64,000 bases of DNA from Candidatus Sericytochromatia bacterium (GCA_035285865.1 JAYKHS010000026.1:77766-141765), one strand, 5' to 3'. Positions 29,482 to 45,568 are shown, counted from the stretch's first letter. The notes: generated by a model from the sequence alone, not told the origin. Translations and numbers: made by a program.

Positions 29482-30220
29482 GGATACCGACGCACAGGGC
29501 TGCGACGGACCAGGATATTCCGTGGATCGCCGCCTGCGCGGCCAGTCCCGGAGTCAGGCGCTGCCCATGGATGACGCGGTTCTTGAGATCCAGCAGCGAG
29601 AAATCGGGAATCGCGTGTCCGATGGCTGTCATGATGGCCTTCGACAAGGGAGGTAGCTGGGTGGCCATGCCCGTGACGCTGTCCAGATTATGGCCCGTGA
29701 CATATAGGGCCAGCGTGGCCAGCAGGGTGACGGGCAGGGAAGCAAAGGCCGAGAATCCGACGGCAAGCGAACCGACGAGGATCGTCTGCAGCATGACCAG
29801 CGGGACCTGCCCGGCCAGGATCAGCGGGTCCATCCCGCGCGCGCCAAGCAGCCCGAGCAGGACCGCCGACTGGCCGAGGACCAGCAACGTGCCCATGGCC
29901 AGCAGGCCCAAGGCCTTGCCCAGCAGAAAGCTCGTCCGCGACACGGGTTTCGAGAGCACGAGGAAGCTTGTTCTCCGTTCCCATTCCCGGGGCAGCATCT
30001 GCGCACCGGCCACGGCCACGAGCAGGACCGACGTCACCTCCATGCAAGCGAAACCCAGGTCGGCAAGGATTCGTGCATCCTGGCCGAGCGACAGGCCGCC
30101 CAGGGGCAAGGCGCAGAGCAGGAGCAGCGCGGACGCCAGCATCGCCCCCGAGACCAGGCGCTCGCGCAGCAGTTCGCGCCACGTCTGGTGGGCCAGTGTC
30201 AGGACGTGTCCGAAGGACAT
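29456..30220 (-). CDS. Pilus-associated ABC-2 permease (PilI-like)
   Basis: Multi-TM; EWERRTSFLVLSKPVSRTSFLLGK; C-terminal FQRRE. Confidence 0.88.
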   Translation of the reverse strand: MSFGHVLTLAHQTWRELLRERLVSGAMLASALLLLCALPLGGLSLGQDARILADLGFACMEVTSVLLVAVAGAQMLPREWERRTSFLVLSKPVSRTSFLLGKALGLLAMGTLLVLGQSAVLLGLLGARGMDPLILAGQVPLVMLQTILVGSLAVGFSAFASLPVTLLATLALYVTGHNLDSVTGMATQLPPLSKAIMTAIGHAIPDFSLLDLKNRVIHGQRLTPGLAAQAAIHGISWSVAALCVGILAFQRREA

Positions 30221-30224
30221 CGTG

Positions 30225-30986
30225 TCAGACCGCGACGGCTGCGGTCTTCGGGTTGCGAACCGTTTCCATGAAGAGTGTTTCCAGGTCGCGGCCGTCCCGC
30301 GAGAGATCCGCGATGGCCGCTTCCGCTGCCAGTTGGCCCTCCACGAGAATACCGACCCGGTCGCAGATTTCGGAGACATCCGACAGGATGTGCGAGTTGA
30401 AGAAAATGGTCTTGCCCTGGCGTTTCAGGTCCAGGATCAACTCGCGGAATTCGTGACGGCCGACGGGGTCGAGGCCGCTCATGGGCTCGTCGAGCAGGAC
30501 GAGCTCTGGGTCGTTGATGAGGGCCTGTGCGATGCCGACACGCTGCAACATTCCCTTGGAATACTTCTTGAGCTGGACCTTGCGTGCATCCTGCATGCGG
30601 ACCTGAGTCAGAAGGCGGTCCGCACGCTCGTCGACGACCTGCCGAGGCAGTTTGAAGAGCCCGCCGCAGAAGCGCAGGAACTCTTCCCCCGTCAGGTGTT
30701 GATAGAAATAGGGATTCTCAGGAAGGTACCCGATACGGTTGCGCACATCGGGGTTTTCGGGGCTCTCCCCGAAGAGTCGGATCTCGCCACGGGTCGGACG
30801 GACAAGTCCGAGGAAAAGCTTCTGGGATGTGGTCTTGCCTGCACCGTTCGGGCCCAGCAAACCGAAGGTCTCCCCCGGTTCGATGCGAAGATCGAGGTCC
30901 GACAGGGCGTGGCGCGCCGGTTGCCCGATCTGCGCCGCATAGGTCTTGGAGAGGCCTTTGGCCTCGAGGACAGGCACGCTCATCAT
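30225..30986 (-). CDS. Pilus-associated ABC ATP-binding protein (Myxococcus PilH-like)
   Basis: GPNGAGKTT, YSKGMLQR, LLDEPMSGLDP and NSH. Confidence 0.93.
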   Translation of the reverse strand: MMSVPVLEAKGLSKTYAAQIGQPARHALSDLDLRIEPGETFGLLGPNGAGKTTSQKLFLGLVRPTRGEIRLFGESPENPDVRNRIGYLPENPYFYQHLTGEEFLRFCGGLFKLPRQVVDERADRLLTQVRMQDARKVQLKKYSKGMLQRVGIAQALINDPELVLLDEPMSGLDPVGRHEFRELILDLKRQGKTIFFNSHILSDVSEICDRVGILVEGQLAAEAAIADLSRDGRDLETLFMETVRNPKTAAVAV

Positions 30987-31056
30987 GGCTGAACCTAGTC
31001 TATACCAGAGCCGATGGCCAGCCGCCAGAGGCGACAGGCCCACGGAAAAACTCGGA

Positions 31057-31539
31057 TCAGGTGTTGTTGAGGACCGAGACCACGACGGCGTTGCCGGCCT
31101 TCTTGCCGACGCCAGTGATGGTGTACTGGTCGTTGGCGGTACCCGCTTCGGTGTAGCAAACGGCACCGTAGTGGTTCTCGGCGAAGGTACCCGTGTTGAT
31201 GCCTGCACCTAGTGAATCATTCAGCACGACCTTGGTGGGCGCAATGTTCGCGGTCTGGGCCTGGCCCCACGGGGTCTTGGGATAGGCACCGCCAGCCATG
31301 TACTCGGTCTTCTGGATCACGTTCCCATAGAAGTCTGCCTTCACAGGGTAAACGCCGGCATTGTCCACACCGTACTGTTCAAGTGCCATCTGCACACTGT
31401 GAGCGTTGGCTTGGACGCCGGCATTCTTGGCCTTGTCCTGGGCTCCCATGAAGTTGGGCACGGCCACGGACGCGAGGATGCCGATGATGACGACGACCAC
31501 GAGCAACTCGATCAGGGTGAAACCACGAGACTTGCGCAC
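31057..31539 (-). CDS. pilA: Type IVa major pilin
   Basis: RG/FTLIELLVVVVIIGILA N-methyl-Phe motif; first gene of the pil operon. Confidence 0.88.
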   Translation of the reverse strand: MRKSRGFTLIELLVVVVIIGILASVAVPNFMGAQDKAKNAGVQANAHSVQMALEQYGVDNAGVYPVKADFYGNVIQKTEYMAGGAYPKTPWGQAQTANIAPTKVVLNDSLGAGINTGTFAENHYGAVCYTEAGTANDQYTITGVGKKAGNAVVVSVLNNT

Positions 31540-31733: not shown

Positions 31734-31781
31734 ACAGGCATTGGGGGTGGTGTTCGGTCGCCCCCGATGAAGGAGAGTGTC

Positions 31782-32945
31782 TTGGCCTTCAACCCCCTGA
31801 GTCGGCTGGGAGGCGGTGGCATCGACCCCGCGCTGTCCCGGACCGCTGGTGGGCGTGGTCTGGGTCCGATCGACGCCGAGATCGACGCCAAGGCCAAGAC
31901 CATGGCGTCACTGGCGTGGCAGACGGCCGTGGGCCGCTCCGGAACCGCCGATCCCTCGCTCGAGGCCGCAGCGCGCCAGAAGCCCTCGGGGCCGACCTGG
32001 TTCGGCTTCCACAACGACGCCTCCATCCTCGCGCGTCTGGCCCAGCAGGGCGTAGCCCCAACGCCCGTGCACCTGCGCATCGCCCAGCAGATGCTTCGGT
32101 ACGGAGTCCCGCTTCAGCCTGCCAACATCGAGCAGATCCGGGCACTCTGGCAGGCTCTGGGTGGTTCGTCGCTCGTCGATCTCGAGGCATTGACAGCCCT
32201 TTTCGCTGCGGGTCTGCCAACCGACCCGGAAAACTTCAAGGCGATGTCCCGCCTGCTTGCCGGTGGGCCGGCCGCCCATCTGTTCGCACGGACAGCCATG
32301 ACGCTCAGGTCGGCCGGCCCGGCCGGCCCGCAGGCCGAGGCTCTGAAGCAATCGCTGCAGGCGTGGTGGAAGCTGGGCAACGGGCCCGAGATGCTGGCGT
32401 CCGAGATGCCCCAATTCCAGCAACTGTCGACCCGCATCCGCCAGCAGGTGACCGCGCTCTCGGGCGCTCGCCTGCCCGAACAGCTGGCCCAGGACGTGCA
32501 GGCCCTCGCCGAGCATTTCCGTGCCCACGAGATGCTTCAGCGCACGCCTCAGAACTCCCTCTACATCCCCTTCTTCCAGTGGCGCGACCAGCAGCCGTTG
32601 CCCGGGGAAATTCTGATCCACGCGGACCGCGACGGGCACGCCGAGCGAACTGGCCAATACGCACAGGTCACGCTGGCCATCGACACGCGCAATCTTGGCC
32701 GCATCACGATCGATCTGACGGCCAGCCGAGGCCACCTCGGCATCGCCTTTGAGGTGCAGGACGCCAGGATCAAGGCCTACATGGACGCCCGGACCCCCGA
32801 GCTTGGGAAGCGGATCGCGCCCAGAACCGGGTACGTGCTGGCCGGGATGCGGGTCGACGCCGTCGGCAACGGCCGCAGCATCTCGATCTTGCTGCCCCGG
32901 CGCAGGGATCTGCGCCGTTTGTCGCGCGCCGTGGGGGTCCTGTGA
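31782..32945 (+). CDS. fliK: Flagellar hook-length control protein FliK-like
   Basis: C-terminal VTLAIDTRNLGRITIDL...LGIAFEV...YMDARTPEL resembles the Flg_hook/T3S4 domain; AGGAG RBS before TTG 31782. Confidence 0.7.
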   Translation: MAFNPLSRLGGGGIDPALSRTAGGRGLGPIDAEIDAKAKTMASLAWQTAVGRSGTADPSLEAAARQKPSGPTWFGFHNDASILARLAQQGVAPTPVHLRIAQQMLRYGVPLQPANIEQIRALWQALGGSSLVDLEALTALFAAGLPTDPENFKAMSRLLAGGPAAHLFARTAMTLRSAGPAGPQAEALKQSLQAWWKLGNGPEMLASEMPQFQQLSTRIRQQVTALSGARLPEQLAQDVQALAEHFRAHEMLQRTPQNSLYIPFFQWRDQQPLPGEILIHADRDGHAERTGQYAQVTLAIDTRNLGRITIDLTASRGHLGIAFEVQDARIKAYMDARTPELGKRIAPRTGYVLAGMRVDAVGNGRSISILLPRRRDLRRLSRAVGVL

Positions 32946-33172
32946 GAGGCAATCGTCCTGACGACGACGCGCTTTGGAACAGCCTGGCGCAAGTGGCCGA
33001 AGCCTACGGGGCTCCGCCCGCCGAGGCCGCGGCCCTGACGCGGGTGCTCGGGCAATTGGACCCGCGTTCGGTGCCTCCCGAACTCGCGGCGGCTGTTGCC
33101 GAGACGCTTGGGTTCGTCTTCGCACTGGATCAGCAGGCTGAAGGAGCGGGCACGATGGAGGGACGTCGATGA
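32942..33172 (+). CDS. Small FlhB C-terminal-like protein (FlhX/YlqH type)
   Basis: SVPPELAAAVAETLGFVFALD matches the FlhB-CC consensus IPxELYxAVAEVLAF; the position after fliK is typical. Confidence 0.75.
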   Translation: MRGNRPDDDALWNSLAQVAEAYGAPPAEAAALTRVLGQLDPRSVPPELAAAVAETLGFVFALDQQAEGAGTMEGRR

Positions 33173-33900
33173 TCCGGGGCATCTACACCGCAGCATCCGC
33201 GATGCAGCTCAACACGCACATGGTCGACGTGATGGCCGACAACCTCGCCAACTCGGCGACCACCGGCTACAAGCGCAAGGAAGCCATCGTGCGTTCCTTC
33301 GGCGATGTGCTGGTGGACCTGACGGGGGATGCCGAGCCGGGGCGGGTCCAGCTTGGCGCCAAGATTGACGAGGTGGCCCGGGACGGCAAGGCGGGCAGCC
33401 TCCGGAGGACGGACGGGCTGCTTGACGTGGCCGTCGAGACCGACGATCACCAGATGCTGGCGCAGCGCGCCGACGGAACCCGGCTCTTCACGCGCAACGG
33501 CCAGCTCAGGCTGGATGCCGAGCGTTACCTCGTGACCAGTACGGGCGACCGCATCCTTGACGCCGGACTTGCTCCCATCGAGATGCCCCAGGACTTGAAT
33601 GGCCTGCGCATTGAGGCCGACGGCACGGTGCGCAGCACTGCCGGTGTCGTGGGACGCATCGGCCTGTTCACGCCCTCGGTGGCCCAGATGACGGGTTTCC
33701 CGGTGGCGATCGGTGCCTTGCTGCCGGCCGAAGGCGGCCGCCTGCAGCAGGGCTATCTCGAGTCGTCGAACGTCAATATCGTCACCGAGATGATGGGCCT
33801 CGTCGAGGCCAATCGCCACTTCGGCTTGGGCCAGAAACTCGTCACCGTGCATGACCAGTTGCTGCAGAAGGCCAGCAACGACCTCGGCCGTACCCAGTAG
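33169..33900 (+). CDS. flgF: Flagellar basal-body rod protein FlgF-like
   Basis: MIRGIYTAASAM...NLANSATTGYK, FTRNG and QGYLESSNVNIVTEM. Confidence 0.88.
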   Translation: MIRGIYTAASAMQLNTHMVDVMADNLANSATTGYKRKEAIVRSFGDVLVDLTGDAEPGRVQLGAKIDEVARDGKAGSLRRTDGLLDVAVETDDHQMLAQRADGTRLFTRNGQLRLDAERYLVTSTGDRILDAGLAPIEMPQDLNGLRIEADGTVRSTAGVVGRIGLFTPSVAQMTGFPVAIGALLPAEGGRLQQGYLESSNVNIVTEMMGLVEANRHFGLGQKLVTVHDQLLQKASNDLGRTQ

Positions 33901-33927
33901 TCCCCAGTTCCACGGAGGAATGTCGCC

Positions 33928-34707
33928 ATGATGCATTCGATCTGGACCGCTGCCACCGGCATGCAGGCGCAGCAGATGCGCATCGATGCCATCGCCAACA
34001 ATCTGGCGAACGTCAACACGACGTCCTACAAGAAGAGCCAGGTGGACTTCCAGGACCTGCTCTACCAGGCGGTGCAGGCCCCCGGGCAGGAGACCGCCGG
34101 CATGCAAGTGGGGCTTGGCGTGCGGCCGGCTGCAATCACGAAGTATCACGCGCAGGGCAATCTGCAGGTCACGAACAATCCCCTCGACGTCGCCATCGAC
34201 GGGCCGGGCTTCTTCCAGGTGACCACCACGGATTCCCGGGTCGTTGGCGGTCGGGCCTTCACGCGGGACGGATCCTTCAAGATCAATAATCTGGGGCAGC
34301 TCGTGACGTCCACCGGCCTGGTGGTCCAGCCCGAGATCCAGCTGGGCAACGTCACGGACATCCGTATCCGCGAAGACGGCATGGTGTTCGGTCGTCTCGG
34401 GGGCGCCGGGCCTGTCACCCAGATCGAGGGCATCCAGCTGGTGACGTTTCCCAACCCTGCTGGGCTGATGTCCATCGGCAACAACCTCTATATGGAGACG
34501 GCTGCCAGCGGTCCGGCCAACGCCCCTGCGGCGGGTGGCGCAAACGGCAATGGTCGCTTCGTCCAGGGGGCTCTCGAAGCCTCGAACGTCGAACTCGTGA
34601 CCGAGATGGTCATGATGATCGCGACGCAGAAGGCTTACGACACCTCTTCAAAAGCCATCAATGTTTCCGACAAGATGATGGAGTCGACCAACGGCCTCAT
34701 CCGCTAA
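33928..34707 (+). CDS. flgG: Flagellar distal rod protein FlgG
   Basis: ATGMQAQQ...ANNLANVNT...FQDLLYQ, FTRDGSF and LEASNV. Confidence 0.95.
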   Translation: MMHSIWTAATGMQAQQMRIDAIANNLANVNTTSYKKSQVDFQDLLYQAVQAPGQETAGMQVGLGVRPAAITKYHAQGNLQVTNNPLDVAIDGPGFFQVTTTDSRVVGGRAFTRDGSFKINNLGQLVTSTGLVVQPEIQLGNVTDIRIREDGMVFGRLGGAGPVTQIEGIQLVTFPNPAGLMSIGNNLYMETAASGPANAPAAGGANGNGRFVQGALEASNVELVTEMVMMIATQKAYDTSSKAINVSDKMMESTNGLIR

Positions 34708-34718
34708 CGGTCGGGAAC

Positions 34719-35459
34719 GTGAGCAACATGCGCGCAGGGGGATTCGCGGGGGTGGCCGTCGCCGCCCTCATGTTGCTGCTCGCTGTCACGCCCGGGGCCG
34801 AGGCTCGGCCGGCGCTCGGTCGCGTGGCTCTGGACACGGTGCGGGCTTCGCTGCAGGCGCAGTACCCGGGGGGCGAGGTCGAGGTCAAACCCCTGCTTCC
34901 CGAGATCTCCACCATGATCCCAAAGGGGGCGGTCGACCCCACGCTGCGCCTCTCGGGTCCCGTTCGCCAACTGGGACCGTCCGTGCCCGTTTCTCTGGAT
35001 GTCCTGGACCGGAACGGCCGCAAGATCGCCTCCGTGGTGCCTCGATTCTCCGTCGAGGTTTGGCGCAACCTGCCCGTGCTCGCTCGGGCGATGCCACGCG
35101 GCACGGCCCTCGCCCCCGCCGACATCGAGGTCCGGCGGCTCGCCCAGAGTCGCGTGACCGGCTCGGTTTTGCTTGACGTGGGGTCTTTGATCGGGGCCAG
35201 ACTGGTCCGCAGCCTCGCCAGCGGCAGCGTGCTCGTGACCCACATGCTTGATCTGCCTCCCGTGGTCCGCCAAGGGGCAACCGTGCGCGTGCACGTGCGC
35301 AGCGGGGGCCTCGAGGTGCTCGGACAGGGGACTGCACTACAGGACGGGCGCGTCGGCCAGGTCATCCGGATGGTCAATCCGACCTCGCGCAAGGACTTCC
35401 TTGCCAGGGTCCGTGACGCCGAAGTTGTCGAATTGGATCTCGGGGAGGAACTCGAATGA
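34719..35459 (+). CDS. flgA: P-ring formation chaperone FlgA
   Basis: Signal peptide, SAF domain and ALQDGRVGQVIRMVNPTS. Confidence 0.9.
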   Translation: MSNMRAGGFAGVAVAALMLLLAVTPGAEARPALGRVALDTVRASLQAQYPGGEVEVKPLLPEISTMIPKGAVDPTLRLSGPVRQLGPSVPVSLDVLDRNGRKIASVVPRFSVEVWRNLPVLARAMPRGTALAPADIEVRRLAQSRVTGSVLLDVGSLIGARLVRSLASGSVLVTHMLDLPPVVRQGATVRVHVRSGGLEVLGQGTALQDGRVGQVIRMVNPTSRKDFLARVRDAEVVELDLGEELE

Positions 35460-36082
35460 TGCGGAGCCTCGCGTGCCTCGCGGTGACCGCGGTGTTGGTC
35501 GTCGCACCCACCGATGCGGCGCGTGCCGACTCACTCTTCCCCGACAGCAACTATGGCGGGCTGATAAGCGATCAGGTCGGGGATCGGCGCATGGCCATCG
35601 GCCCGGGCTCCCTCGTCACGGTGGTCGTGACGGAGAACATCCAGGCCGAGCAGGCGGCGACGACCCGTACCATCAAGGATTCCAAGGTCTCTTCGTCGTG
35701 GGACTTCGGGTCGATCTTCGGCATCGGCGCCAATAACCAGGGCTCTTTCAACAATCAGGTCGAGATGTCCGGAAAGGCCGACTTCAACGGCGACGGCGTG
35801 ACGCGTCGGGGTGGGACGATCTCGATGCTTGTGGCGGCTCAGATCACGGAAATCCTTCCTGATGGCTCGATGCGCATCAAGGGTTCCAAGGATCTGGTGG
35901 TCAACGACGAGAAGTCGACGGTGGTGATCTCGGGCGTGGTCCGCCCGTGGGACATCGGCATCGACAACCGGATTCCCAGCGAGCGGATTGCCGGCTTCCA
36001 GCTCGAGTACCAGGGCTCGGGGCCCAACTCGGCGAAGACCACACCAGGCCTGTTCTCGCGTCTGCTGAACTGGCTGTTCTAG
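35456..36082 (+). CDS. flgH: Flagellar L-ring protein
   Basis: ADSLF, LVTVVVTE, ISGVVRPWDIGIDNRIPSERIA and PG...RLLNWLF. Confidence 0.93.
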   Translation: MMRSLACLAVTAVLVVAPTDAARADSLFPDSNYGGLISDQVGDRRMAIGPGSLVTVVVTENIQAEQAATTRTIKDSKVSSSWDFGSIFGIGANNQGSFNNQVEMSGKADFNGDGVTRRGGTISMLVAAQITEILPDGSMRIKGSKDLVVNDEKSTVVISGVVRPWDIGIDNRIPSERIAGFQLEYQGSGPNSAKTTPGLFSRLLNWLF

Positions 36083-36094
36083 GGGCTTGCCAAC

Positions 36095-37222
36095 TTGAGA
36101 CCCACACGCGCCATTCCCGGATGCCTGATGCTTGTCGGCCTCCTGCTGCTGCAGGCTCTGCCTTCACGAGCTCAGGTCCTGCAGGGTAAGCCTGCGCGGC
36201 TCAAGGACATCGCGACCGTCTCGGGAGCGCGATCCAATATCCTCCACGGCATGGGACTGGTGGTAGGCCTCGATGGCACGGGCGACTCCCAGACGACGGG
36301 TTTCACCGAGCGGGCCCTGCGCAACTTCATCCAGGCCGCCGGCATGTTCCCGACCGAGCGGCTGCGGACGCGCAACGTAGCCGTCGTTTCGGTCGATGCC
36401 CGCTTGCCGCCCTTCTACAAGCCCGGGCAGACCATCGACATCACGGTGTCGTCCATCGGCGACGCCCGCAGCCTAAACAACGGCGTCCTGATCCCGACCG
36501 CGCTCAAGGCCGCGGACGACAAGGTCTACGCCGTGGGCCAAGGGCCGCTGAGCACGGGCGGCTTCGGCATCGAGGTGAACGGTTCCCAGGTCAAGAAAAA
36601 CCCGACTCTGGTGGCGCGCATCCCGAACGGCGGGCTCGTCGAGCGAGAGGTGCCGGTCACGGTGCTCGATGCCAACGGTTTCCTCTACATCAATCTCAAC
36701 AATCCGGACTTCATCACGGCATCCCGCGCGGCCGCCGCCATCGGACGCTCCTACCTCGGCTCGGCCCAGGCCCTCGACGCCGGGACCATCCGGGTCTACG
36801 TGACCAACCAGTATCGCGACAATCTCGTGGATCTGGTGGCGCGCCTCGAGGGTCTCGAGGTGGCACCCGACGCCGTGGCCAAGGTCGTGGTCGAGGAGCG
36901 CACGGGCACGGTCATCCTCGGATCCAACGTGAAGATTGATCCCGTGGCCATCAGCCATGGCGGGCTTATCATCAAAGTCGAGACCAAGTTCAACGTCTCC
37001 CAGCCCAATCCATTGTCGGCCGGCCAGACGACCGTCACTCAGGAGTCCCAGGTCTCCGCCGAGGAGCAGAAGGCCAAGGCGGTCATCTTCGACAAGGGCA
37101 CGACCCTGGGCACGCTTGTTCGGGCCTTGAATGCGCTGGGCACCACGCCGCGCGACCTCATCACCATCCTGCAGAACATCAAGGCGGCCGGTGCCTTGAA
37201 CGCCCAGCTGGAGATCATCTGA
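36095..37222 (+). CDS. flgI: Flagellar P-ring protein
   Basis: RLKDIA...GLVVGLDGTGD, ERTGTVILG and ILQNIKAAGALNAQLEII. Confidence 0.96.
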   Translation: MRPTRAIPGCLMLVGLLLLQALPSRAQVLQGKPARLKDIATVSGARSNILHGMGLVVGLDGTGDSQTTGFTERALRNFIQAAGMFPTERLRTRNVAVVSVDARLPPFYKPGQTIDITVSSIGDARSLNNGVLIPTALKAADDKVYAVGQGPLSTGGFGIEVNGSQVKKNPTLVARIPNGGLVEREVPVTVLDANGFLYINLNNPDFITASRAAAAIGRSYLGSAQALDAGTIRVYVTNQYRDNLVDLVARLEGLEVAPDAVAKVVVEERTGTVILGSNVKIDPVAISHGGLIIKVETKFNVSQPNPLSAGQTTVTQESQVSAEEQKAKAVIFDKGTTLGTLVRALNALGTTPRDLITILQNIKAAGALNAQLEII

Positions 37223-37650
37223 TGCAGGTGCCCCCGCCACCCGGCTTGCCCCCGTCACGGGGGGCGCAGGCTCCTGCTCGCTTCGGGCAGGATCTGTCGG
37301 CCACGTTGCCCGGGGGCGTGCCTCCGATGTTGCCGCAGATTGCGGGTGCGGCCGGCGTTCGTCCCGTCGTGGGTACACCCGCCGGCGTGACGGGGAACCA
37401 GATGGAACCGGCAAATCCCGAGGAGGCGGCAAAGGCGTTCGCAAGCATCCTTTTCGGGTACATGTTTGCGGAGATGCGCCCCAAGGAAGAGGACAGTCTG
37501 CTCGGGGGCGGGGATACCGAGATGTTCATGGACTTCTTCGATCAGGCGATGGCCAGGAATTTCGTCGACCAGGGCAACCCCCTCGTCGACCTGATCGTGG
37601 ATCGTCTGTCGCCCAAGGACACCGGCAAGGGAGAAGCTGGTCCCTCATGA
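37222..37650 (+). CDS. flgJ: FlgJ rod-binding domain only (no muramidase)
   Basis: EEAAKAFASIL...MFAEMR...MFMDFFDQAMA. Confidence 0.75.
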   Translation: MQVPPPPGLPPSRGAQAPARFGQDLSATLPGGVPPMLPQIAGAAGVRPVVGTPAGVTGNQMEPANPEEAAKAFASILFGYMFAEMRPKEEDSLLGGGDTEMFMDFFDQAMARNFVDQGNPLVDLIVDRLSPKDTGKGEAGPS

Positions 37651-38369
37651 GTGACAAGCGTGCCACGATGCCGGGCTCCAAGGGGGCTCCGGCGCTTGAT
37701 GCCGCGCAAATCAAGAAGTACGAGGGTCTGGTACGCAGCATTGCACGCAAGCAGCTCGGCAAGCTGCCGCAGCACTACGAGCTCGAGGAGCTCATCGCGG
37801 ACGGCTGGATGGGGCTGATGATGGCGCATGACCGCTTCGACCCGGATCGTGGCGTGAAGTTCGAGACCTTCGCCACCTACTACATCCGTGGCGCGATGCT
37901 GGACAACCTGCCCAAGCTGCCCAAGCCGCCCAAGATCAAGGGGGAAAAGGGGCCCGAGGCGCCCGAAGGTGCGCCAGCCGAAGGCGAAGAGGAGGGCGAA
38001 GCAGCCCTGATGGTCAATCGGGTGACCGAACTGGCATACAGCTATCTGCTCTCGCTGGATGATCCTGCCGGTGGCGATGGGGACGACGGGTATTCGCGTC
38101 TGGACCAACTCGGTCGCTGGGACAACAAGCAGAAGGAGCTGGAGGAACAGGACCTGCACCGGATCCTGAAGCTGACCATCCAACTGCTCGAGGATCGCGA
38201 GCGTATCACGCTCGAGAATTACTATTTCAAGAACATGAGCTTCGCGGAGATAGGCGAGATGCTCGGTCTCTCCGAATCGTGGGTCAGCCGGATCCATCGG
38301 CGGGCGCTCAGTCAGGTGCGTCAGAAACTGGGCAAGAAGAAGTCGATCGACGACTTCATCAGCTGGTAA
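37647..38369 (+). CDS. fliA: FliA/WhiG family sigma factor (region 3 reduced)
   Basis: Region 2 (RFDPDRGVKFETFA..IRGAMLD), LLSLDD and region 4 (EIGEMLGLSESWVSRIH). Confidence 0.85.
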   Translation: MSDKRATMPGSKGAPALDAAQIKKYEGLVRSIARKQLGKLPQHYELEELIADGWMGLMMAHDRFDPDRGVKFETFATYYIRGAMLDNLPKLPKPPKIKGEKGPEAPEGAPAEGEEEGEAALMVNRVTELAYSYLLSLDDPAGGDGDDGYSRLDQLGRWDNKQKELEEQDLHRILKLTIQLLEDRERITLENYYFKNMSFAEIGEMLGLSESWVSRIHRRALSQVRQKLGKKKSIDDFISW

Positions 38370-38384
38370 GGGCAGGAGGGCGAC

Positions 38385-38786
38385 ATGGACCTGTTCGGCA
38401 AGGAAATCCGCGGGCTCGAGCGCGCGATGGACGGCCTGTCCCGGCGCATGGAGGCCACGGCCCTCAACCTGGCGAACGTGCATACCCCCGGTTATGCGCG
38501 GCGCGATGTCCGGTTCGAGGACTCGCTCGCCGAGGTCCTCGATTCCATGGAGGTGCCCATCGATCCCGAACGGACGGAGGCACCCGAGGATCCTTCCTAC
38601 ATGATTGAGCAATGGCAGCCAAGGACCGAGATCGATGAGCGCCGTCCCCAGCGGCTCGATGGCAATGGGGTGATCCTCGAGAAGGAGGTTTCGACCGCCA
38701 GCCAGGCTGCTCTTCGTTTCAACGTCCTGGCCACGAGCGTCGCCGGGGACTACCGCGACCTCAAGTTCGTCATCGACGCCAAGTAA
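38385..38786 (+). CDS. flgB: Flagellar rod protein FlgB
   Basis: NLANVHTPGYARRDVRFE and RLDGNGVILEKE. Confidence 0.92.
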   Translation: MDLFGKEIRGLERAMDGLSRRMEATALNLANVHTPGYARRDVRFEDSLAEVLDSMEVPIDPERTEAPEDPSYMIEQWQPRTEIDERRPQRLDGNGVILEKEVSTASQAALRFNVLATSVAGDYRDLKFVIDAK

Positions 38787-38798
38787 TCCAGGCCGTGG

Positions 38799-38835
38799 GG
38801 GCTCCGGGCATCGCGCCCGGGGCCCTTTAATTCTT
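38799..38835 (+). terminator. Intrinsic terminator between flgB and flgC
   Basis: gggctccgggc-atcgc-gcccggggccc followed by TTTAATTCTT. Confidence 0.7.
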
Positions 38836-38920
38836 CATTGGCGAACTTTTCGGTTGCATCATCCGGGGGTACAAGAAAGCCGAACCGTCCTGGCCCGGTA
38901 TTCGCTGGAGGTGGCGTCCG

Positions 38921-39319
38921 ATGAGCCTGATGAACGTATTCAATACCGGCGAGAGCGCGCTTGCCGCCAACCGGATGTGGTTGGAGGTCATCGCGGGCAA
39001 CCTCGCCAATGCGCAGACCACGCGCACGGACGAGGGCGGTCCCTACCGCCGCAAGGTGCCGCTGTTCTCCGAGGTGCTGGACGCCGAGATGCAGGGCGTG
39101 CGCGTGTCGGCCATCGAACAGGACCAGAGTCCGCTCCAGAGGGTCTACAAGCCCGGCCATCCGGATGCGGACAAGGATGGCTTCGTCAGCATGCCCAACG
39201 TCAACGTCGTCACCGAGATGGTCGACATGATTGGCGTCCAGCGCAGCTATGACGCCAACGTCACGGTCATGCAGGCCATCAAGTCGATGGCCAACAAGTC
39301 CATGGACATCGGGAGGTAG
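38921..39319 (+). CDS. flgC: Flagellar rod protein FlgC
   Basis: NLANAQTTR..GGPYRRK and YKPGHPDADKDGFVSMPNVNVVTEMVDMI. Confidence 0.96.
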   Translation: MSLMNVFNTGESALAANRMWLEVIAGNLANAQTTRTDEGGPYRRKVPLFSEVLDAEMQGVRVSAIEQDQSPLQRVYKPGHPDADKDGFVSMPNVNVVTEMVDMIGVQRSYDANVTVMQAIKSMANKSMDIGR

Positions 39320-39322
39320 CGC

Positions 39323-39700
39323 GTGCGCATCGACGGTTTCCGAACGCCCGGTGTCGGTCAGGCCTTCGGGGGTTTCCCGGCCTTCGGGGACTTCCCGGCC
39401 ATGCCCGAAGCGTTGTCGTCCGACAGCAAGATGCCATCCGTCACCGATTCCTTCGAGGCAAGCGAGGATGATGGTCCCGGTGCGCACTTCGCGGCCATCC
39501 TGAACGATGCCATCGATTCGGTGAACGCGCAGCAGACTCGGTCGGAGCAGATCACGATGGACTTTGCCTTGGGCAAGGCGGTTGACCCGCATGCCGTCAT
39601 GATCGAGAACGCCAAGGCGGAGACGCTGGTCCATCTCACCAGCAGCGTCACCAACAAGATGGCGCAGTCGTTCCAGACCCTGATGAATCTCCAGATCTGA
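39323..39700 (+). CDS. fliE: Hook-basal body protein FliE
   Basis: FAAILNDAIDSVN...HAVMI..AKAE...NKMAQSFQTLMNLQI. Confidence 0.9.
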   Translation: MRIDGFRTPGVGQAFGGFPAFGDFPAMPEALSSDSKMPSVTDSFEASEDDGPGAHFAAILNDAIDSVNAQQTRSEQITMDFALGKAVDPHAVMIENAKAETLVHLTSSVTNKMAQSFQTLMNLQI

Positions 39701-39707
39701 TCGCCGC

Positions 39708-41630
39708 ATGGGCTTCCTGCAGAATCTGACCCCCCAGCAGCGGATCGCCCTGCTCGGCGGTGGCGGTGGTCTGATCCTGTTGCTGATCGTCGCCATCACC
39801 TTTGCGGTGATGTCGGGCGGCAAGAAGGACGAGCCGCAGGCCCGCGAGCAGGAGTCCGGCTACGAGGTGGTCTTCAAATACCTGCAGCCCAAGGAGATGG
39901 ACGAGGCGGCCGCCGCCCTGAAGGCTCAGAAGATTCGCGAATTCAAGTTCACCGAGGACGGCACGCTGCTGGTCCAGAAGGACAAGGTCGTCGACGCGCG
40001 CGTGGCGCTGGGTGAAGCGCAGGTCCCCAAGAACCCGAACAACCAGGGTCTCGAGATCTTCAACAAGAAGGACTTCATCTCGACGGACTTCGACAAGAAG
40101 ATCGCCTTCCTGCGGGCGCTCAACGGCGAACTGACGCGTCTGGTCCGCAAGGTCCAAGGCGTCGAGGACGCCACCGTGCTCGTGAACATGCCCGAGGACA
40201 CGCTCTTCCAGCAGGAGAGGAAGGCCATCACGGCCAGCGTGATGATCAAGATGGAGGCCAGTCGCCAGCTGACGCCCCAGCAGGTCGAGGGCATTCAGCA
40301 CATGGTGGCTTCCGCCGTTCCGGGCCTGCTCACGGACAATGTCACCGTCGTGGACGATCAGGGTAACCTCATCTCGAGCGGCCTCGAAAACAACATCGGC
40401 GACCAGAACGAGCGCCTCGTTTCTCGCGCTATTGACCAGCAGATGAAGATTACCCGGTCCATGGAAGGCGAGATCCAGACCAGCCTGCAGTTGCTGCTCG
40501 ACAAGTTGGTCGGCAACGGCAAGTCCGTGGTGCGCGTGCGCCTTGAGTTGGATTTCAACAAGCGTCAGGTCCGCAATCGCCTCCTGGCCCCCGTGACGGC
40601 CAACGGCGAGCCCATGAGCAGTGCGCGCTCCGTGCAGCGTGAGACGCTGAAGAACGGGGCGCAGGGTGCCGCGCCCGGCACGACGGCCAATCTGCCCAGC
40701 TACCCCTTGCTGCCCGGGAACGTCTCGGGCCAGCCCGGCGTCGCGGGGTCGACGCAGGGTCAGGAGACCTCGCGCGAGAACATTCGCGAGCAGCCTGCCT
40801 TCAACCAGGAAGACCAGATCGTCCAGACGGCCTCAGGCAACATCAAGCGGATGAGCATCGCCGTGCTCCTGCCCGAGACGGTCAAGCCCGAGGCCGTCGA
40901 CAAGCTGCGCAACGTCATCGCGGCTGCTGCGGGCGCCGATCCGGCCCGTCGGGATCAGGTCACGGTCGAGCGGGTCAAGTTCGACACCACGCTCATGGAC
41001 CAGCTCAAGGAGCAGCTCAACAAGAAGGAAGCCGAGGCCAAGGCGGCCGCGAAGAAGAAGGGCGCCGTTGGCTGGAACCTGGTTATCTGGGGCGGGGTTG
41101 CCGCCTTCGTGTTCGCGGCGATCGTGGCGCTCGTCTCCCGGCGCAAGCGGTCGACCGAGAACCCGTTCGATGTCCTGTCCTCTGGCCTCGATGCCGAGGC
41201 CTTGCCGTCCGGCTTCGAGGGACCCGGGGCGTTGGGTGGATTCCCGACCCCCGAGCAGCTGGGTGCCTTGCCCGGCGGGATGCCTCAGATGGGCGGATTC
41301 AACCAGGACCAGACCGACTATGCGGCTCAGGCGGGTTACGGGGCACCCCAACAGGATTTCGGGGCCCAGCAGGCCGGGGGGCCCTTCGACTTCACCTATC
41401 AGGTCGGTCCCGATCAATTGGCCGAGGCCTTGGCGACCGAGCGTCCCGCCACGGTCGCCGGCGTGCTGGCCCAGCTTGACCCCTCGTTCGCCGAGACCGT
41501 CATCGCCAGCCTGCCGCCGGACATTCAGGGCGACGTCTTCAACCGGATGGGCTCCGCGGCACCATTGCCGTCGATGACCCAGCGGATGGTGTCGCAGAAC
41601 CTCAGGCGCAAGCTGGGGGTTCCGGTCTAG
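39708..41630 (+). CDS. fliF: MS-ring protein FliF with C-terminally fused FliG-middle-like domain
   Basis: Two TMs, GLEIF...TDF...RALNGEL and HMVASAVPGL..DNVTVVD; C-terminal PFDF...ERPATVAGVLAQL...LPPDIQGDVFNRM. Confidence 0.9.
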   Translation: MGFLQNLTPQQRIALLGGGGGLILLLIVAITFAVMSGGKKDEPQAREQESGYEVVFKYLQPKEMDEAAAALKAQKIREFKFTEDGTLLVQKDKVVDARVALGEAQVPKNPNNQGLEIFNKKDFISTDFDKKIAFLRALNGELTRLVRKVQGVEDATVLVNMPEDTLFQQERKAITASVMIKMEASRQLTPQQVEGIQHMVASAVPGLLTDNVTVVDDQGNLISSGLENNIGDQNERLVSRAIDQQMKITRSMEGEIQTSLQLLLDKLVGNGKSVVRVRLELDFNKRQVRNRLLAPVTANGEPMSSARSVQRETLKNGAQGAAPGTTANLPSYPLLPGNVSGQPGVAGSTQGQETSRENIREQPAFNQEDQIVQTASGNIKRMSIAVLLPETVKPEAVDKLRNVIAAAAGADPARRDQVTVERVKFDTTLMDQLKEQLNKKEAEAKAAAKKKGAVGWNLVIWGGVAAFVFAAIVALVSRRKRSTENPFDVLSSGLDAEALPSGFEGPGALGGFPTPEQLGALPGGMPQMGGFNQDQTDYAAQAGYGAPQQDFGAQQAGGPFDFTYQVGPDQLAEALATERPATVAGVLAQLDPSFAETVIASLPPDIQGDVFNRMGSAAPLPSMTQRMVSQNLRRKLGVPV

Positions 41631-41644
41631 CGGCCGGTTGATCC

Positions 41645-43750
41645 ATGCCGCAGCGCAAGGGGCTGATTCCTGATCTGATCCTGGCCGGGATCGTCATCCT
41701 GGTCCTTGCGATCCTCGTCATTCCGCTTCCCTTGTGGATGCTGGACCTGCTGCTGATCATCAACCTGGTCGCGGCTCTGGTCATCGTCTTCGTCTCGCTC
41801 TATCTGGTCCGGCCCCTCGAGTTCGCAAGCTTCCCGTCGTTGCTGCTGATCATGGCGCTGTACCGCCTGGCCTTGTCGGTGGCCACGTCGCGGTCGATCC
41901 TCAGCCATGCGGAAGCCGGCAAGGTCATCGAGACCTTCGCCAACTTCGTGGTCGGCGGCAATTTCATCGTCGGTTTCATCCTGTTCGCGATTCTGATCAT
42001 CGTGAACTTCATCGTCATCACCGAAGGTGCGAAACGGGTCGCCGAGGTTGCTGCCCGGTTCACCTTGGACGCCATGCCTGGCAAGCAGATGTCCATCGAT
42101 GCCGACCTGGCCGCAGGCCTCATCGATGCGGAGGGTGCCAAGAAGCGCCGCACGGACCTCGAGCGCGAAGCCAACTTCTTCGGCGCAATGGACGGTGCCA
42201 ACAAGTTTGTTCGGGGCGATGCGATCGCCGCCATCATCTTGATCTTCGTCAACATCATCGGCGGCATCCTGATTGGGATCCTGCAGAAGGACATGGAGGT
42301 CGAACAGGCCCTCAAGGTCTATTCGCTGCTGACAATCGGCGACGGCTTGGTCGGCCTGATACCCGGCCTGTTGATTTCGATCTCGGCCGGTTTCGTGACC
42401 ACGCGTGCGGCCTCGGACTTCAATCTCGCGACGGACCTCAAGAACCAGCTCTTCACCAGCCCGAAAGTCCTTGGCATCGTCGGCTTCGTCATCATCATGA
42501 TGGGCTTCATTCCGGGCTTCCCGACGGTTCTGATGCTGTTGCTCGGGCTTGGTATCCTCTTCGCGGCCTTCGTTGCCTACAGAGGGGGACTGCTCGGGGC
42601 TGCACCGCCCTCCCTGGCGGGAGATGCGCCACCGATGGGTGACGAATTCGACGACTACCAGCCGGAGTCGGACGAGGACCTCAAGAATCCCGAGAACGTC
42701 ATGAAGATGCTCGGCGTGCCGCCGCTGACGCTCGAACTGGGCCTCGATCTGGTACCTCTGGTGGACCCCGGCCTCGGTGGCGAGCTGATGGATCGCGTCG
42801 TGCCCATGCGCGTGGCCATCGCGTTGGACCTCGGTTTCGTCATGCCGGGTATCCAATTCAAGGACAACCTCAATCTGCGGCCGAATGCCTACCAGATCCT
42901 GGTCAAGGGAAACACCGTCGCCACGGGCGAGCTGCTGGTCGGCTACATGCTGGCCATCCAGCTCAACACGACGGACCTGTCTCAGGAGTTGGTCGGCTTC
43001 CCGACGAGCGATCCGGCGGGCAACCGTCCTGCTGTCTGGGTGGCCGGTGCCGAGGCGCAACGAGCCGCACAGCTGGGCTACCTGATCCAGGATCCGACCA
43101 ACGTGCTGACGGCACACCTTGAGGAAGTGGTCCGGGCACATGCTCACGAGATCCTGAGCCGCGAGGAGGTCAAGATGATGCTCAACCGGCTGCAGGAGCG
43201 TGCCCCCATCACGGTCAAGGAGCTGGTGCCCGAAGTGCTTGCGCTGGGCGAGGTACAGCGCGTCCTGCAATCGCTCCTGCGCGAGCGGGTGAGCATCCGT
43301 GACCTCGCCACCATCGCCGAGAAGCTGGCCGACTTCGGCAAGATGACCAAGGATGTCTTCACGCTCACCGAACTGGTGCGGCAACAGCTTTCCCGGAACA
43401 TCTGCGCTTCTGTGGCCGACGATGAGGGTCGCATCGACGTGATCACGCTTGATCCAGCGGTCGAGGGCGCCATCCAGCAGGCCATCCAGCCTGGACCTCA
43501 GGGACCGACGCTGGCGCTGAACCCCCAGATCGCCCAGCTGATGCTTGCGCGGCTGGCTGGCGTGGTGAACGAGGCCCTCGCCAAGGGCCAGAACCCGGCA
43601 GTGCTCGTCAGCCCGATTGTGCGTCCCCACGTCAAGAACCTGGTGGATCGCAACTTTCCGAACCTTTCGGTTCTGTCCTACTCCGAGATCAACGCCAAGT
43701 TCAAGGTCCAGGCGATCGGGGCCGTCTCGATTGCCGTCGGGGCTGCTTGA
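41645..43750 (+). CDS. flhA: Flagellar export apparatus protein FlhA
   Basis: RVAEVAARFTLDAMPGKQMSIDADL, FFGAMDGANKFVRGDA and VLSYSEI. Confidence 0.97.
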   Translation: MPQRKGLIPDLILAGIVILVLAILVIPLPLWMLDLLLIINLVAALVIVFVSLYLVRPLEFASFPSLLLIMALYRLALSVATSRSILSHAEAGKVIETFANFVVGGNFIVGFILFAILIIVNFIVITEGAKRVAEVAARFTLDAMPGKQMSIDADLAAGLIDAEGAKKRRTDLEREANFFGAMDGANKFVRGDAIAAIILIFVNIIGGILIGILQKDMEVEQALKVYSLLTIGDGLVGLIPGLLISISAGFVTTRAASDFNLATDLKNQLFTSPKVLGIVGFVIIMMGFIPGFPTVLMLLLGLGILFAAFVAYRGGLLGAAPPSLAGDAPPMGDEFDDYQPESDEDLKNPENVMKMLGVPPLTLELGLDLVPLVDPGLGGELMDRVVPMRVAIALDLGFVMPGIQFKDNLNLRPNAYQILVKGNTVATGELLVGYMLAIQLNTTDLSQELVGFPTSDPAGNRPAVWVAGAEAQRAAQLGYLIQDPTNVLTAHLEEVVRAHAHEILSREEVKMMLNRLQERAPITVKELVPEVLALGEVQRVLQSLLRERVSIRDLATIAEKLADFGKMTKDVFTLTELVRQQLSRNICASVADDEGRIDVITLDPAVEGAIQQAIQPGPQGPTLALNPQIAQLMLARLAGVVNEALAKGQNPAVLVSPIVRPHVKNLVDRNFPNLSVLSYSEINAKFKVQAIGAVSIAVGAA

Positions 43751-44160
43751 TGCGTGGTGCCGGCCGTCCGGTTGCACGGGCGCGGTCGTGGATCCGGCTG
43801 CTGGTGCTCTGGATGGTCGTGCTCTGCTTCGGAGCGGCCTCGACGTTATTGGAGGACGAGCGCGTGGGCGGTCAGGAGGCGCACCACCTTCTCCTGGAGG
43901 ACGTGTTGGCCTGCGATGCCGTGTCGCTGGGCCGCGGTCTCGCCGGCATCCCGGAGTTCCGTGCGCGCGTGCCTGCGTTACGGGGCGAGTCCGGCCAGTT
44001 CGCTTCACGTCGGATGGTTGACCGTAGTCGGACGACCTCCGGAGGCGTACGGGAGGGCTGTGCGATGGCCCCGCCAACATCACGCGGGCCACCGTCTACG
44101 GGGCGGGGCGGACCTTTCCTGATTCGCTGGCGCGATCGTTGGGGGTGGGTCGGACCGTAA
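43750..44160 (+). CDS. Hypothetical membrane-targeted peptide with RGPP motif (possible arrest leader)
   Basis: Hydrophobic segment LLVLWMVVLCFGAAS, His/Cys residues, SRGPPS near the C-terminus. Confidence 0.35.
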   Translation: MRGAGRPVARARSWIRLLVLWMVVLCFGAASTLLEDERVGGQEAHHLLLEDVLACDAVSLGRGLAGIPEFRARVPALRGESGQFASRRMVDRSRTTSGGVREGCAMAPPTSRGPPSTGRGGPFLIRWRDRWGWVGP

Positions 44161-44289: not shown

Positions 44290-45568
44290 ATGAATCCTGT
44301 CGACCGCCGGTATGAGGATCTCCGGACGGGTCATCTCGGCCTCAATATCCTCCGCGACTTGATGGCCGGTCTGATCGTGGCCATGGTGGCCATTTCGCTG
44401 GCCATGGGCTTTGCGATGGCCAGCGGATTGGCCCGAGCAGGGCATCGTGGGCGGGGCCGTGGCCGGCGCCATAGGCGCTCTGTTCGGGGGCTCCAAGTAC
44501 CAGGTCTACGGACCGACGGCGGCCTTCATCCCGATCATCGCGGGCATCATGGCCAAGCACGGCTATTCGATGCTGGTGCTGGCGTCGATTCTTGCAGGCT
44601 TGGTCCTGATGGTCATGGGGGTCGCTCGCCTCGGGCGCGTGGTGGCGCGCGTGTCCCACTCCATTGTGGTGGGATTCACCGTGGGCATCGCCCTGTCTAA
44701 GGTCGGTGAGGTCCTGGGCCTGCACGCCAAGTTTGGCTATGCCATGGCAGACAAGAACCGCGGCATCGTCGCACACGGTCACGAGACCAACGTCTATGCC
44801 GTCATCATCGCGCTGCTGACCTTCGCGATCAGCTAGACGCTCATCAAGGTTTCCGTCCTCATTCCGGCGCCGCTGATTGCCGTCGGTGCCGGTACGATGC
44901 TCGCGCAGGGACTGTAGGCCGACAAGGGGCTCGTGACGGTTCGCGAGAAGTACGGTTCCATTCCGACGGACTTCTGGATCTTCACGCCTCCGCAGGGCAT
45001 CGACCCGACCCCGGCGGTACTGGGCGACCTGGCCTTCTATACCTTGGCCATCATCTTCGTGGCGGCCATCGAGGGCCTGCTCTGCAGCCGCATGGCCGAT
45101 CGCCTGGCGGGCAACAAGGGCATGCCCTACAACCCGGACAAGGAGCTCTGGGGGCAGGGTCTGATGCAGGTCGTGGTGCCGCTGCTGAACGGCTTCCCCC
45201 ATACGGGTGCGCTCGCCCGGACGGCCACCAACATCAGGTTGGGTGCCTTGTCTCCGCTTGCAGGCCTTTTCAAGTGCGTGCTGAAGCTGCTGCTTGCGGC
45301 CTTCCTCGCCTCGTGGCTGGAGCGGGTGCCCATGGCCTGCATCGGCGGCAGCCTGCTTTATGTGGCCTCGGGCATGGTCAAGGCCGATGAGGTGCGCGAA
45401 CTGGTCCGTGACGGCAGGGCGCACATGGCACTGGCCGCCTGGACTGCCGTGATGGTCGTCGCCACAGACTTCCTGAGGGACGTTCTGTCGGCGCTTCTCA
45501 TCTTCATCCTGTTCCGGAGATTTTTCGAGACTGGGTTTCAGGCGGCTCCGCCGGCCAGCGCTTCCTGA
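44290..45568 (+). pseudogene. SulP/SLC26 family anion transporter pseudogene
   Basis: DLMAGLIVAMVAI and ALFGGSKYQVYGPTAAF...ALARTATN; frameshift near 44430 and in-frame TAG stops at 44834-44836 and 44915-44917. Confidence 0.88.

Follow-up and report, generated by a model that had tools for sequence, protein, structure and literature searches.

A second, paralogous flagellar-type basal body in Sericytochromatia with a FliG middle domain on its MS-ring protein

Does a cluster of flagellar genes that places fliF directly before flhA, and that ends FliF in a piece of FliG, belong to a flagellum that rotates? This question was raised by a 64,000-nucleotide stretch of a Candidatus Sericytochromatia genome (GCA_035285865.1, JAYKHS010000026.1:77766-141765); the whole stretch is called the window here, and window coordinates are counted from its first nucleotide. 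The genome, G000, is a Sericytochromatia metagenome-assembled genome of 2.82 Mb in 32 contigs and is 82.7% complete. Based on open reading frames (ORFs) and on Pfam and NCBIfam searches, fourteen densely packed plus-strand genes span positions 31767-43750. A sequence-only reading of the window had listed rod, ring, and export genes, fliK-like and FlhB-CC-like genes, and a sigma factor, and all of these were present where it had placed them, the FlhB-CC-like gene being recognized via a relative in genome G033. That reading had also suggested that the genes might specify a derived apparatus that kept a docking site for the C-ring and lost or uncoupled rotation. The analysis presented here showed that the window is the core of a second, paralogous flagellar-type basal body and type III export system, which we refer to as system 2. 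Taken together, the evidence leaned toward the view that system 2 builds a hook-basal body working without FliG-dependent torque.

FliF2 ends in a FliG middle domain

The MS-ring gene of system 2, fliF2 (39708..41630, plus strand), encodes a protein of 640 amino acids (aa) in which complete periplasmic domains and a second membrane helix are followed by a linker of ~80 aa and then by a FliG middle (ARM_M) domain. In Pfam searches, YscJ_FliF was matched by residues 49-223, YscJ_FliF_C by residues 264-425, and FliG_M by residues 568-636 (2e-12), while FliG_N and FliG_C had no match anywhere in the protein. The NCBIfam fliF model was covered only at positions 14-449 of 555, which indicated that the usual FliG-docking tail is missing from FliF2. 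A weak match to the NCBIfam fliG model corresponded to FliG positions 107-170. Alignments showed that the linker, which is Gly/Pro/Gln rich and of low complexity, varies in length and sequence among relatives; the domain of ~80 aa that comes after it is conserved.

To examine the fold of this domain, the last 100 residues of FliF2 were modeled in AlphaFold2 from an 8-sequence alignment. The mean pLDDT (predicted local distance difference test) score was 81.8, and residues 1-16 of the model were disordered. When the model was compared to the PDB using Foldseek, the best 17 matches were all FliG middle domains or FliG chains, including 4QRM_D (target template modeling [TM] score of 0.77, root mean square deviation of 1.8 Å), 4FQ0_C (target TM score of 0.81, root mean square deviation of 1.8 Å), and 3SOH_B (0.78). 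Because the domain is short, none of the matches reached an E value of 0.001. The Pfam and structural results agreed with the earlier claim that this FliF carries the middle domain of FliG and no other FliG domain: in place of the FliG-docking tail, FliF2 has a flexible linker that bears a FliG middle domain.

We also compared the domain with FliG1, the FliG protein encoded elsewhere in the same genome. The E-H-P-Q motif of FliG1, which has a role in FliM binding, is E-R-P-A in FliF2 and E-R-L-P in family f6 (see below), and a later arginine is retained. In genome G006, which belongs to family f2, the FliF2 tail domain was matched once more and separately (C48:36882-37103, plus strand), within a 138-aa frame located between fliF2 and flhA2. 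In the window, flhA2 (41645..43750, plus strand) follows fliF2 directly, as had been noted, with 14 bases between them; it encodes a 701-aa export-gate protein (Pfam FHIPEP, 6e-241).

The same genome encodes an ordinary flagellum

A complete ordinary flagellar system, system 1, was found on contigs C22 (93-122 kb) and C5 (60-68 kb) of G000. Its genes are flgB, flgC, fliE, fliF (526 aa, with a normal tail), a full-length fliG with N, M, and C domains, fliI, fliJ, fliK, flgD, flgE, flbD, motA, motB, fliL, fliM, fliP, fliR, flhB, flhA, cheA, fliA, and cheW. The gene order is Firmicute-like, with flbD, fliL, and a long flgE of 842 aa. A second system 1 cluster contains flgF, flgG, flgJ, flgM, flgK, flgL, flhF, and flhG and is without flgA, flgH, and flgI. 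Four flagellin genes in tandem and a fifth elsewhere were also found in G000, and these flagellins could not be assigned to either system.

The two systems are extensively paralogous. Specifically, FliF, FlhA, FlgB, FlgC, FlgF, FlgG, and the sigma factor are duplicated in G000, as are FlhB, FliP, FliR, FliN, FliI, FlgE, and FlgD. For flgA, flgH, and flgI, tblastn searches indicated that the window copies are the only ones in the genome.

One alternative is that G000 has a single ordinary flagellum with dispersed genes and that FliF merely happens to carry an irrelevant FliG-like tail; the sequence-only reading had named full-length fliG, motAB, hook, and flagellin genes elsewhere in the genome as the finding that would favor this. 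Those genes were indeed found elsewhere, but they accompany their own fliF, flhA, flhB, fliP, fliR, fliM, fliI, flgB/C, and fliE and form the separate, complete system 1. Furthermore, FliF2 and FlhA2 are only 28% and 40% identical, respectively, to their system 1 copies, and both FlhA types occur across the class. Because a full set with its own fliF, flhA, flhB, fliP, fliR, fliM, and fliI lies elsewhere, the window is no fragment of one flagellum with scattered genes, and we gave this alternative less credence than any other considered here.

System 2 has an export gate, an ATPase complex, and a hook

The remainder of system 2 was scattered over four other contigs of G000, and the total came to ~28 genes. 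A cluster at C22:4145-10790 contains flgD2, flgE2 (379 aa), a FliM-like gene (292 aa), a membrane FliN-like gene, fliN2, fliO, fliP, fliQ, and fliR; within it, flgD2 and flgE2 are at C22:9134-10790, and the FlgD2 frame was confirmed. The flhB2 gene (432 aa) is on C28, fliH2 and fliI2 are on C5, and fliJ2, followed by a second FliK-type gene (285 aa), is on C30. The expectation that fliPQR, flhB, and hook genes could lie outside the window was correct, with FliP/Q/R2, FlhB2, and FlgE2 all encoded on other contigs. An export gate (FlhA2, FlhB2, and FliOPQR2) and an ATPase complex (FliH2, FliI2, and FliJ2) are both present in system 2, as are genes for the MS ring, rod, L/P rings, and hook. FliG, a stator gene, FlgK, FlgL, FliD, and an assignable flagellin were all absent from the system 2 clusters.

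The FliM-like protein, FliM2, has neither the GGPG loop nor the N-terminal LSQxEIDAL-type peptide, and FliM1 has both (LSQNEIDAL). The N-terminal peptide is the CheY-binding motif of FliM. The lack of both motifs in FliM2 makes chemotactic switching unlikely as well. Between the FliM-like gene and fliN2 lies the membrane FliN-like gene, which encodes a polytopic membrane protein ending in a FliN/SpoA domain; this protein has 461 aa in G000 (L028:6803-8188, minus strand, on C22) and 674 aa in G033 (L036:12432-14456, minus strand). Its N-terminal part matched nothing in Pfam at an E value of ≤1, and a search of the ESM Atlas with the protein returned only FliN/FliY rows with low TM scores.

Within FliG, the middle domain (FliG_M) binds FliM, and the C domain (FliG_C) bears the surface that MotA touches; the export ATPase is docked by FliN together with FliH. 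In the arrangement that we propose, each FliF2 subunit would present ARM_M directly to a FliM-like/FliN unit, and a C-ring-like cytoplasmic platform would be kept for the export of rod and hook subunits driven by FliH2 and FliI2. The canonical torque path, which runs from MotA to FliG_C, FliG_N, and the FliF tail, would be gone, and the resulting organelle, which would end in a hook, would be non-rotating or at least not driven by FliG. The flexible linker before ARM_M argues against a stiff, torque-transmitting joint.

A gene for a HEAT-repeat protein (767-780 aa) adjoins the flgE2-like gene in both G000 (L028:10851-13154, plus strand) and G033 (L037:9955-12297, plus strand). The G033 gene is flanked by cheW and cheR, and the two HEAT-repeat proteins gave no mutual tblastn match.

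System 2 is distributed across the class

To examine the distribution of system 2, we used the last 100 residues of FliF2 as a query against 47 genomes of class Sericytochromatia and, for comparison, 354 other Cyanobacteriota. Of the 47 class genomes, 44 had the tail domain at the end of a frame of 600-670 aa, one of these frames being cut by a contig end. As read from coordinates, a FHIPEP match was located 75-1051 bases from the tail on the same contig in 43 of these 44 genomes. None of the 354 other Cyanobacteriota had a FliF-FliG_M fusion; their matches were ordinary FliG proteins in 340-370-aa frames. FliM2 was present, in open frames, in 45 class genomes.

When 1.84 billion representative proteins were searched exhaustively with HMMER, nearly all of the best 150 matches were ordinary FliF proteins of 500-560 aa, and only 7 aligned through the C-terminal domain of FliF2. 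A word-index search with the FliF2 tail returned 13 proteins only, and the named ones were from Sericytochromatia or Cyanobacteria. In the synteny check that had been suggested, the gene order of the window was kept in all eight related loci examined, down to 31-52% FliF identity.

These data bear on the idea that system 2 is what is left of a lost flagellum, now decaying and without a present function. The lack of FliG, the reduced sigma factor, and a FliM without switch motifs are what one might expect of such a relic, but the frames are open and synteny is kept in all seven families, across which protein identity ranges from 27% to 98%, and the set is kept in family f6 after the loss of system 1. 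Hence, we consider decay very improbable. Judging from the open frames and gene order, system 2 is conserved class-wide and maintained.

FlhA2 is of the flagellar type

To place FlhA2 relative to flagellar and injectisome proteins, we compared its scores on NCBIfam models. FlhA2 scored 765.7 bits on the FlhA model (cut-off, 772.1) versus 632.5 bits on the SctV model. More generally, flagellar NCBIfam models were the best scoring or were above their cut-offs for FlhA2, FlgG2, FlgB2, FlgC2, FliE2, and FliF2. By these scores, FlhA2 is of the flagellar type and not the injectisome type.

In a quick, unfinished FlhA tree, FlhA2 formed its own clade with a support of 99, and FlhA1 grouped with one Vampirovibrionia FlhA type and Firmicute-type sequences. 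FlhA2-type proteins are 58-100% identical within the clade and 46-49% identical to Firmicute-type FlhA. The sequence-only reading had proposed such a tree as a check; the clade emerged from it, but the tree is unrooted, has no injectisome outgroup, takes its rows from FlhA2's own best matches, and gives no donor.

Additional FlhA-related proteins were seen. Five Vampirovibrionia genomes have two full-length FlhA types each, the second of which is very divergent. Many class genomes and Vampirovibrionia also encode stand-alone proteins of ~370-640 aa, up to several per genome, whose similarity to FlhA is limited to its cytoplasmic half (model positions ~320-656).

Family f6 appears to keep system 2 without a swimming flagellum

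FliG_C matches were found in 40 of the 47 class genomes. One canonical match (147-161 bits) was present in 38 of them, and no class genome had two. Family f2 (8 genomes) had one FliG_C match per genome despite having both FlhA types. The weaker, extra FliG_C matches were of three kinds: 615-758-aa FliF-FliG fusion proteins of a different kind (on C6 in G000), orphan FliG paralogues in six g24 genomes and G001 (7 of the 47 genomes), and fragments in G027.

Family f6 was particularly informative. It comprises six genomes that are 74-98% complete, and one of these, G033, is in three contigs. The f6 genomes have only one full-length FlhA, which adjoins FliF2. FliG_C was found in none of the six genomes, and Flagellin_N was found in none of the six, versus all 41 of the remaining class genomes. 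FlgK_D1 was likewise found in none of five f6 genomes, and FliD_C was above the cut-off in none of five, with one sub-threshold match of 20.5 bits. When full-length FliG1 was used as the query, no FliG N or C domain was detected in f6 at an E value of ≤1; the sole match was the FliF2 tail, which aligned with FliG1 residues ~105-191 in five of the six genomes.

System 2 itself was readily found in f6. In the case of G033, one cluster contains the FlhB-CC-like gene, flgF, flgG, flgA, flgH, flgI, flgJ, and the sigma factor, and a second contains flgB, flgC, fliE, fliF2, and flhA2. A third has genes for the FliM-like and membrane FliN-like proteins, fliN, a fliO-fliP fusion, fliQ, and fliR, and a fourth has fliJ and genes for a 1607-aa FliK-like protein and a 532-aa FlgE-like protein; four lone rod/hook-family paralogues are located elsewhere. 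The fliO-fliP fusion is a single 413-aa gene (L036:10770-12011, minus strand in G033), and open frames of 393-413 aa were found in three f6 genomes. FlgI was found in four of five f6 genomes and FliP in three of five, and there were 8-10 Flg_bbr_C matches per genome. These findings suggest that, in f6, system 2 is maintained without a swimming flagellum, a filament, or a detectable FliG N or C domain.

The f6 data also bear on the possibility that system 2 mainly serves system 1, supplying it with the outer-membrane bushing (FlgA, FlgH, and FlgI) and distal rod, and that its own FliF, FlhA, and export parts are helpers or redundant. This idea fits the finding that flgA, flgH, and flgI occur only in the window and are missing from the system 1 cluster. 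It also fits the class-wide counts: FlgI is a single gene in 44 of the 47 class genomes, and, as read from coordinates, 35 of these 44 have it on the same contig as FliF2. However, f6 keeps FlgA, FlgH, and FlgI together with the whole of system 2 even though system 1, flagellin, and FliG were not found there. Nor would a helper role account for an entire second export gate and ATPase complex, or for a second hook with its cap and a second sigma factor. We therefore regard it as improbable.

The reading that we favor, a hook-basal body without FliG-dependent torque, gains from the same data. The suggestion of a derived apparatus with a FliM docking site agreed with the class-wide lack of a torque domain, as no second canonical FliG was found in the 47 genomes and none at all in f6; the other half of that suggestion, the loss of rotation, is our inference. 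With this qualification, system 2 is most likely a non-rotating export or surface structure.

Evidence for a rotary alternative

The most serious competitor is that system 2 is a true second rotary flagellum. In this scenario, the rotor would receive its torque along some non-canonical path or with the help of parts that are shared or orphan (FliG1, the orphan FliG proteins, or one of the extra MotAB pairs), with flagellins and hook-associated proteins drawn from a common pool. Several findings favor it and count against a non-rotating organelle.

First, exactly one MotAB pair, with a MotB plug, was found in each of the five f6 genomes tested. The f6 MotA proteins are 362-363 aa with a C-terminal extension of ~110 aa, and the genomic context of the pair is not conserved. 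In G033, the pair directly follows the gene for a 1707-aa protein (L042:2784-7907, plus strand) whose end is weakly similar to the FliK-like protein of the window (18% over 149 aa; E value, 1e-4). This protein and the 1607-aa protein encoded beside fliJ (L037:2016-6839, minus strand) are two giant G033 proteins with faint FliK-type C-terminal ends. The retention of MotAB in f6 means that a stator may still act on system 2 through some other contact, and G000 likewise has, besides the system 1 pair, two further MotAB pairs.

Second, flhA2 is directly followed by a flagellin gene of the same orientation in the f2 genomes G004 (L084:9507-10460, minus strand) and G007 (L085:9855-10790, minus strand). 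The encoded proteins are 312-318 aa and have both flagellin domains, so system 2 may carry a filament in some lineages. In f2, the cluster containing the FliM-like gene and fliPQR is a few kilobases from a gene of the FlhA1 type.

Third, the orphan FliG paralogues of g24 and G001 are full-length (N, M, and C domains) at both loci examined. The G039 protein is 355 aa (L086:8257-9324, plus strand) and the G001 protein is 332 aa (L087:6121-7119, minus strand); their contexts are non-flagellar, with Thg1 and enoyl-CoA hydratase genes near the former and GNAT and lipoate ligase genes near the latter. System 2 also retains the rod, L/P rings, hook cap, hook, and FliK, as a motile flagellum does. Finally, both sides of the canonical interface are altered, FliF2 by the changed E-H-P-Q motif and FliM2 by the lack of the GGxG loop, so that the contact between FliF2 and FliM2 in our model is a putative one.

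Other findings point away from rotation. FliF2 has lost the tail that docks FliG, ARM_M sits on a flexible, low-complexity linker, FliM2 is without the CheY-binding peptide, and the orphan FliG proteins are confined to 7 of the 47 genomes. Moreover, f6 has no detected FliG N or C domain, flagellin, FlgK, or FliD. Based on these considerations, we think that a second rotary flagellum is unlikely, although less so than the other alternatives discussed here.

Flagellin N-terminal domains were also seen inside very long frames (842-1803 aa) in class genomes; the one in G000 (C14:188680-188976, minus strand) is inside a 1015-aa frame. These may be giant flagellin-like proteins.

Other genes of the window cluster

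The cluster begins with a fliK-like gene (31767..32945, plus strand) whose 392-aa product matched Flg_hook at residues 298-351 (5.2e-06, under the Pfam cut-off). This gene is one of two FliK-type genes in system 2 and is kept at the same place in the related loci L021-L023, L026, and L027. The GTG start of the next ORF (32942..33172, plus strand), which encodes the 76-aa FlhB C-terminal-domain-like protein, overlaps the fliK-like stop codon (GTGA). Pfam and NCBIfam searches with this ORF itself gave no match. It was identified by its similarity (41% identity over 85 aa) to a 98-aa G033 protein that is encoded at the same position and matches the FlhB C-terminal domain (PF01312 positions 261-335; E value, 3e-20).

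The rod and ring genes follow, all on the plus strand. The proximal/distal rod gene flgF (33169..33900, 243 aa) matched Flg_bb_rod, LlgE_F_G_D1, and Flg_bbr_C in Pfam and scored 123.7 bits on the NCBIfam flgF model, which is under the cut-off. The distal rod gene flgG (33928..34707, 259 aa) was recognized by Pfam and scored 282.9 bits on flgG_G_neg, above the cut-off of 252.75. Next are genes for the P-ring assembly chaperone, flgA (34719..35459; ChapFlgA, 5e-24), the L ring, flgH (35456..36082; FlgH, 1e-37), and the P ring, flgI (36095..37222; FlgI, 3e-121). The flgJ gene (37222..37650) encodes a 142-aa protein that has only the rod-binding domain (Pfam Rod-binding at residues 84-125, 1.5e-05) and no muramidase domain.

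The sigma-28-like factor (37647..38369, plus strand; 240 aa) had been described as structurally reduced, and our results agreed: Pfam found Sigma70 regions 2 and 4 only, with no region 3. FliA_WhiG was its best-scoring NCBIfam family, but the 130.6 bits, spread over two stretches, fell short of the cut-off of 189.6. The other FliA of G000 scored 257.7 bits and has region 3. The window sigma factor is thus a reduced relative of FliA/sigma-28. A scan of the genome with a sigma-28-type consensus pattern gave 11 matches, none of which was upstream of a flagellar gene. When upstream regions were inspected by eye, plausible sigma-28-like boxes were seen at some late genes of system 1, and none that was firm was seen for system 2.

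Between the sigma factor gene and fliF2 are three plus-strand genes. Two encode proximal rod proteins, flgB (38385..38786; NCBIfam FlgB, 67.3 bits versus a cut-off of 59.05) and flgC (38921..39319; NCBIfam FlgC, 151.9 bits versus a cut-off of 102.1), and the flgC product is 47% identical to FlgC of system 1. The third is fliE (39323..39700), with a Pfam FliE match of 3e-19 and an NCBIfam fliE match above the cut-off. A 137-aa ORF located after flhA2 (43747-44160) belonged to no family and had no match in relatives; it is probably not a gene.

Upstream of the cluster is a type IV pilus cluster (23290-31539, minus strand) with genes for a secretin, PilO, PilN, PilM, a prepilin peptidase, and a pseudopilin. 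The pseudopilin gene beside the fliK-like gene is kept there in relatives at only 52% FliF identity. Downstream of flhA2 are genes for a two-piece sulfate permease, a PucR regulator, and ClpB. The two permease ORFs (44411-44836 and 44933-45568, plus strand) correspond to Pfam model positions 30-174 and 221-368 and may reflect a frameshift or a pseudogene.

Implications and comparison with known systems

We tentatively propose, with somewhat less than even confidence, that system 2 is an independently evolved, injectisome-like repurposing of the flagellum. It would be a non-rotating hook-basal body that retained its rod, L/P rings, and hook and in which a FliM-docking FliG domain has been welded to the MS ring; it would be used for protein export or attachment to surfaces and be able to outlive the swimming flagellum, as in f6. 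To our knowledge, conversion of a flagellum into a non-motile secretion machine is known only from injectisomes and a few degenerate remnants (Chlamydia and insect symbionts). Here, an intermediate-looking and apparently intact machine occurs class-wide beside a normal flagellum and alone in one family, which amounts to a natural series. Such a series could be used to test the role of a C-ring without torque, the uses of L/P rings and a hook beyond rotation, and the nature of the exported substrates. On a practical level, calls of "flagellated" for non-photosynthetic relatives of cyanobacteria can rest on two different systems, and the sole L/P-ring genes belong to the unusual one.

Compared with the ordinary motor (FliF-FliG-FliM-FliN plus MotAB), the basal-body, rod, ring, hook, and export components of system 2 are all homologous. 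Unlike that motor, system 2 is without a FliG N or C domain, a FliF docking tail, a CheY-binding peptide, and a stator gene in its clusters. In known dual flagellar systems, such as lateral plus polar flagella, the second set generally forms a full motor that has its own FliG, MotAB, and flagellin. Systems 1 and 2 resemble these in being two paralogous sets, each with FliF, FlhA, FlhB, FliPQR, and FliI, and with a sigma factor in the second; they differ in that system 2 is without FliG and yet holds the genome's only L/P-ring genes.

The aphid symbiont Buchnera has filament-less flagellar basal bodies and has kept fliG. System 2 of f6 is similar in being a flagellum-derived type III machine without a filament, presumably with a non-swimming use, but it is without fliG. 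In injectisomes, a secretin and needle replace the rod, L/P rings, and hook, all of which system 2 keeps. With regard to injectisome features, the only nearby secretin is that of the PilMNO type IV pilus cluster on the other strand, and needle proteins were not searched for.

Loss of motility-specific parts has been described as the first repurposing step on the route from flagellum to injectisome (Abby and Rocha, 2012, PMC3459982). Di Rienzi et al. (2013, PMC3787301) report a Melainabacteria genome with two flhA genes and treat the flagellum as one. No description of a second flagellar system or of a FliF-FliG_M fusion in Sericytochromatia was found in the literature, supplements being outside the search.

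The only natural FliF-FliG_M fusion found in the literature is the short FliF paralogue of Chlamydiaceae. According to Bergeron (2016, PMC4768692), that protein has ~330 aa, ends in a homologue of the FliG M domain, and is without part of the SctJ-like region and the third ring domain. The same paper notes that Chlamydiaceae have no corresponding FliG, that an flhA paralogue accompanies the fusion, and that docking to a FliM/SctQ-like protein was proposed; it also cites engineered full FliF-FliG fusions that are functional in Salmonella and Vibrio. A match of FliF2 to NCBIfam NF004606 (positions 82-159) covers only the ring domain and so shows no special kinship to the chlamydial protein. The likeness is in the C-terminal FliG middle domain that both proteins carry. 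Chlamydiaceae have few flagellar genes left, beside an injectisome, whereas FliF2 is a 640-aa protein with both full Pfam FliF domains and belongs to a set of ~28 genes that includes a rod, L/P rings, a hook, an export gate, and an ATPase.

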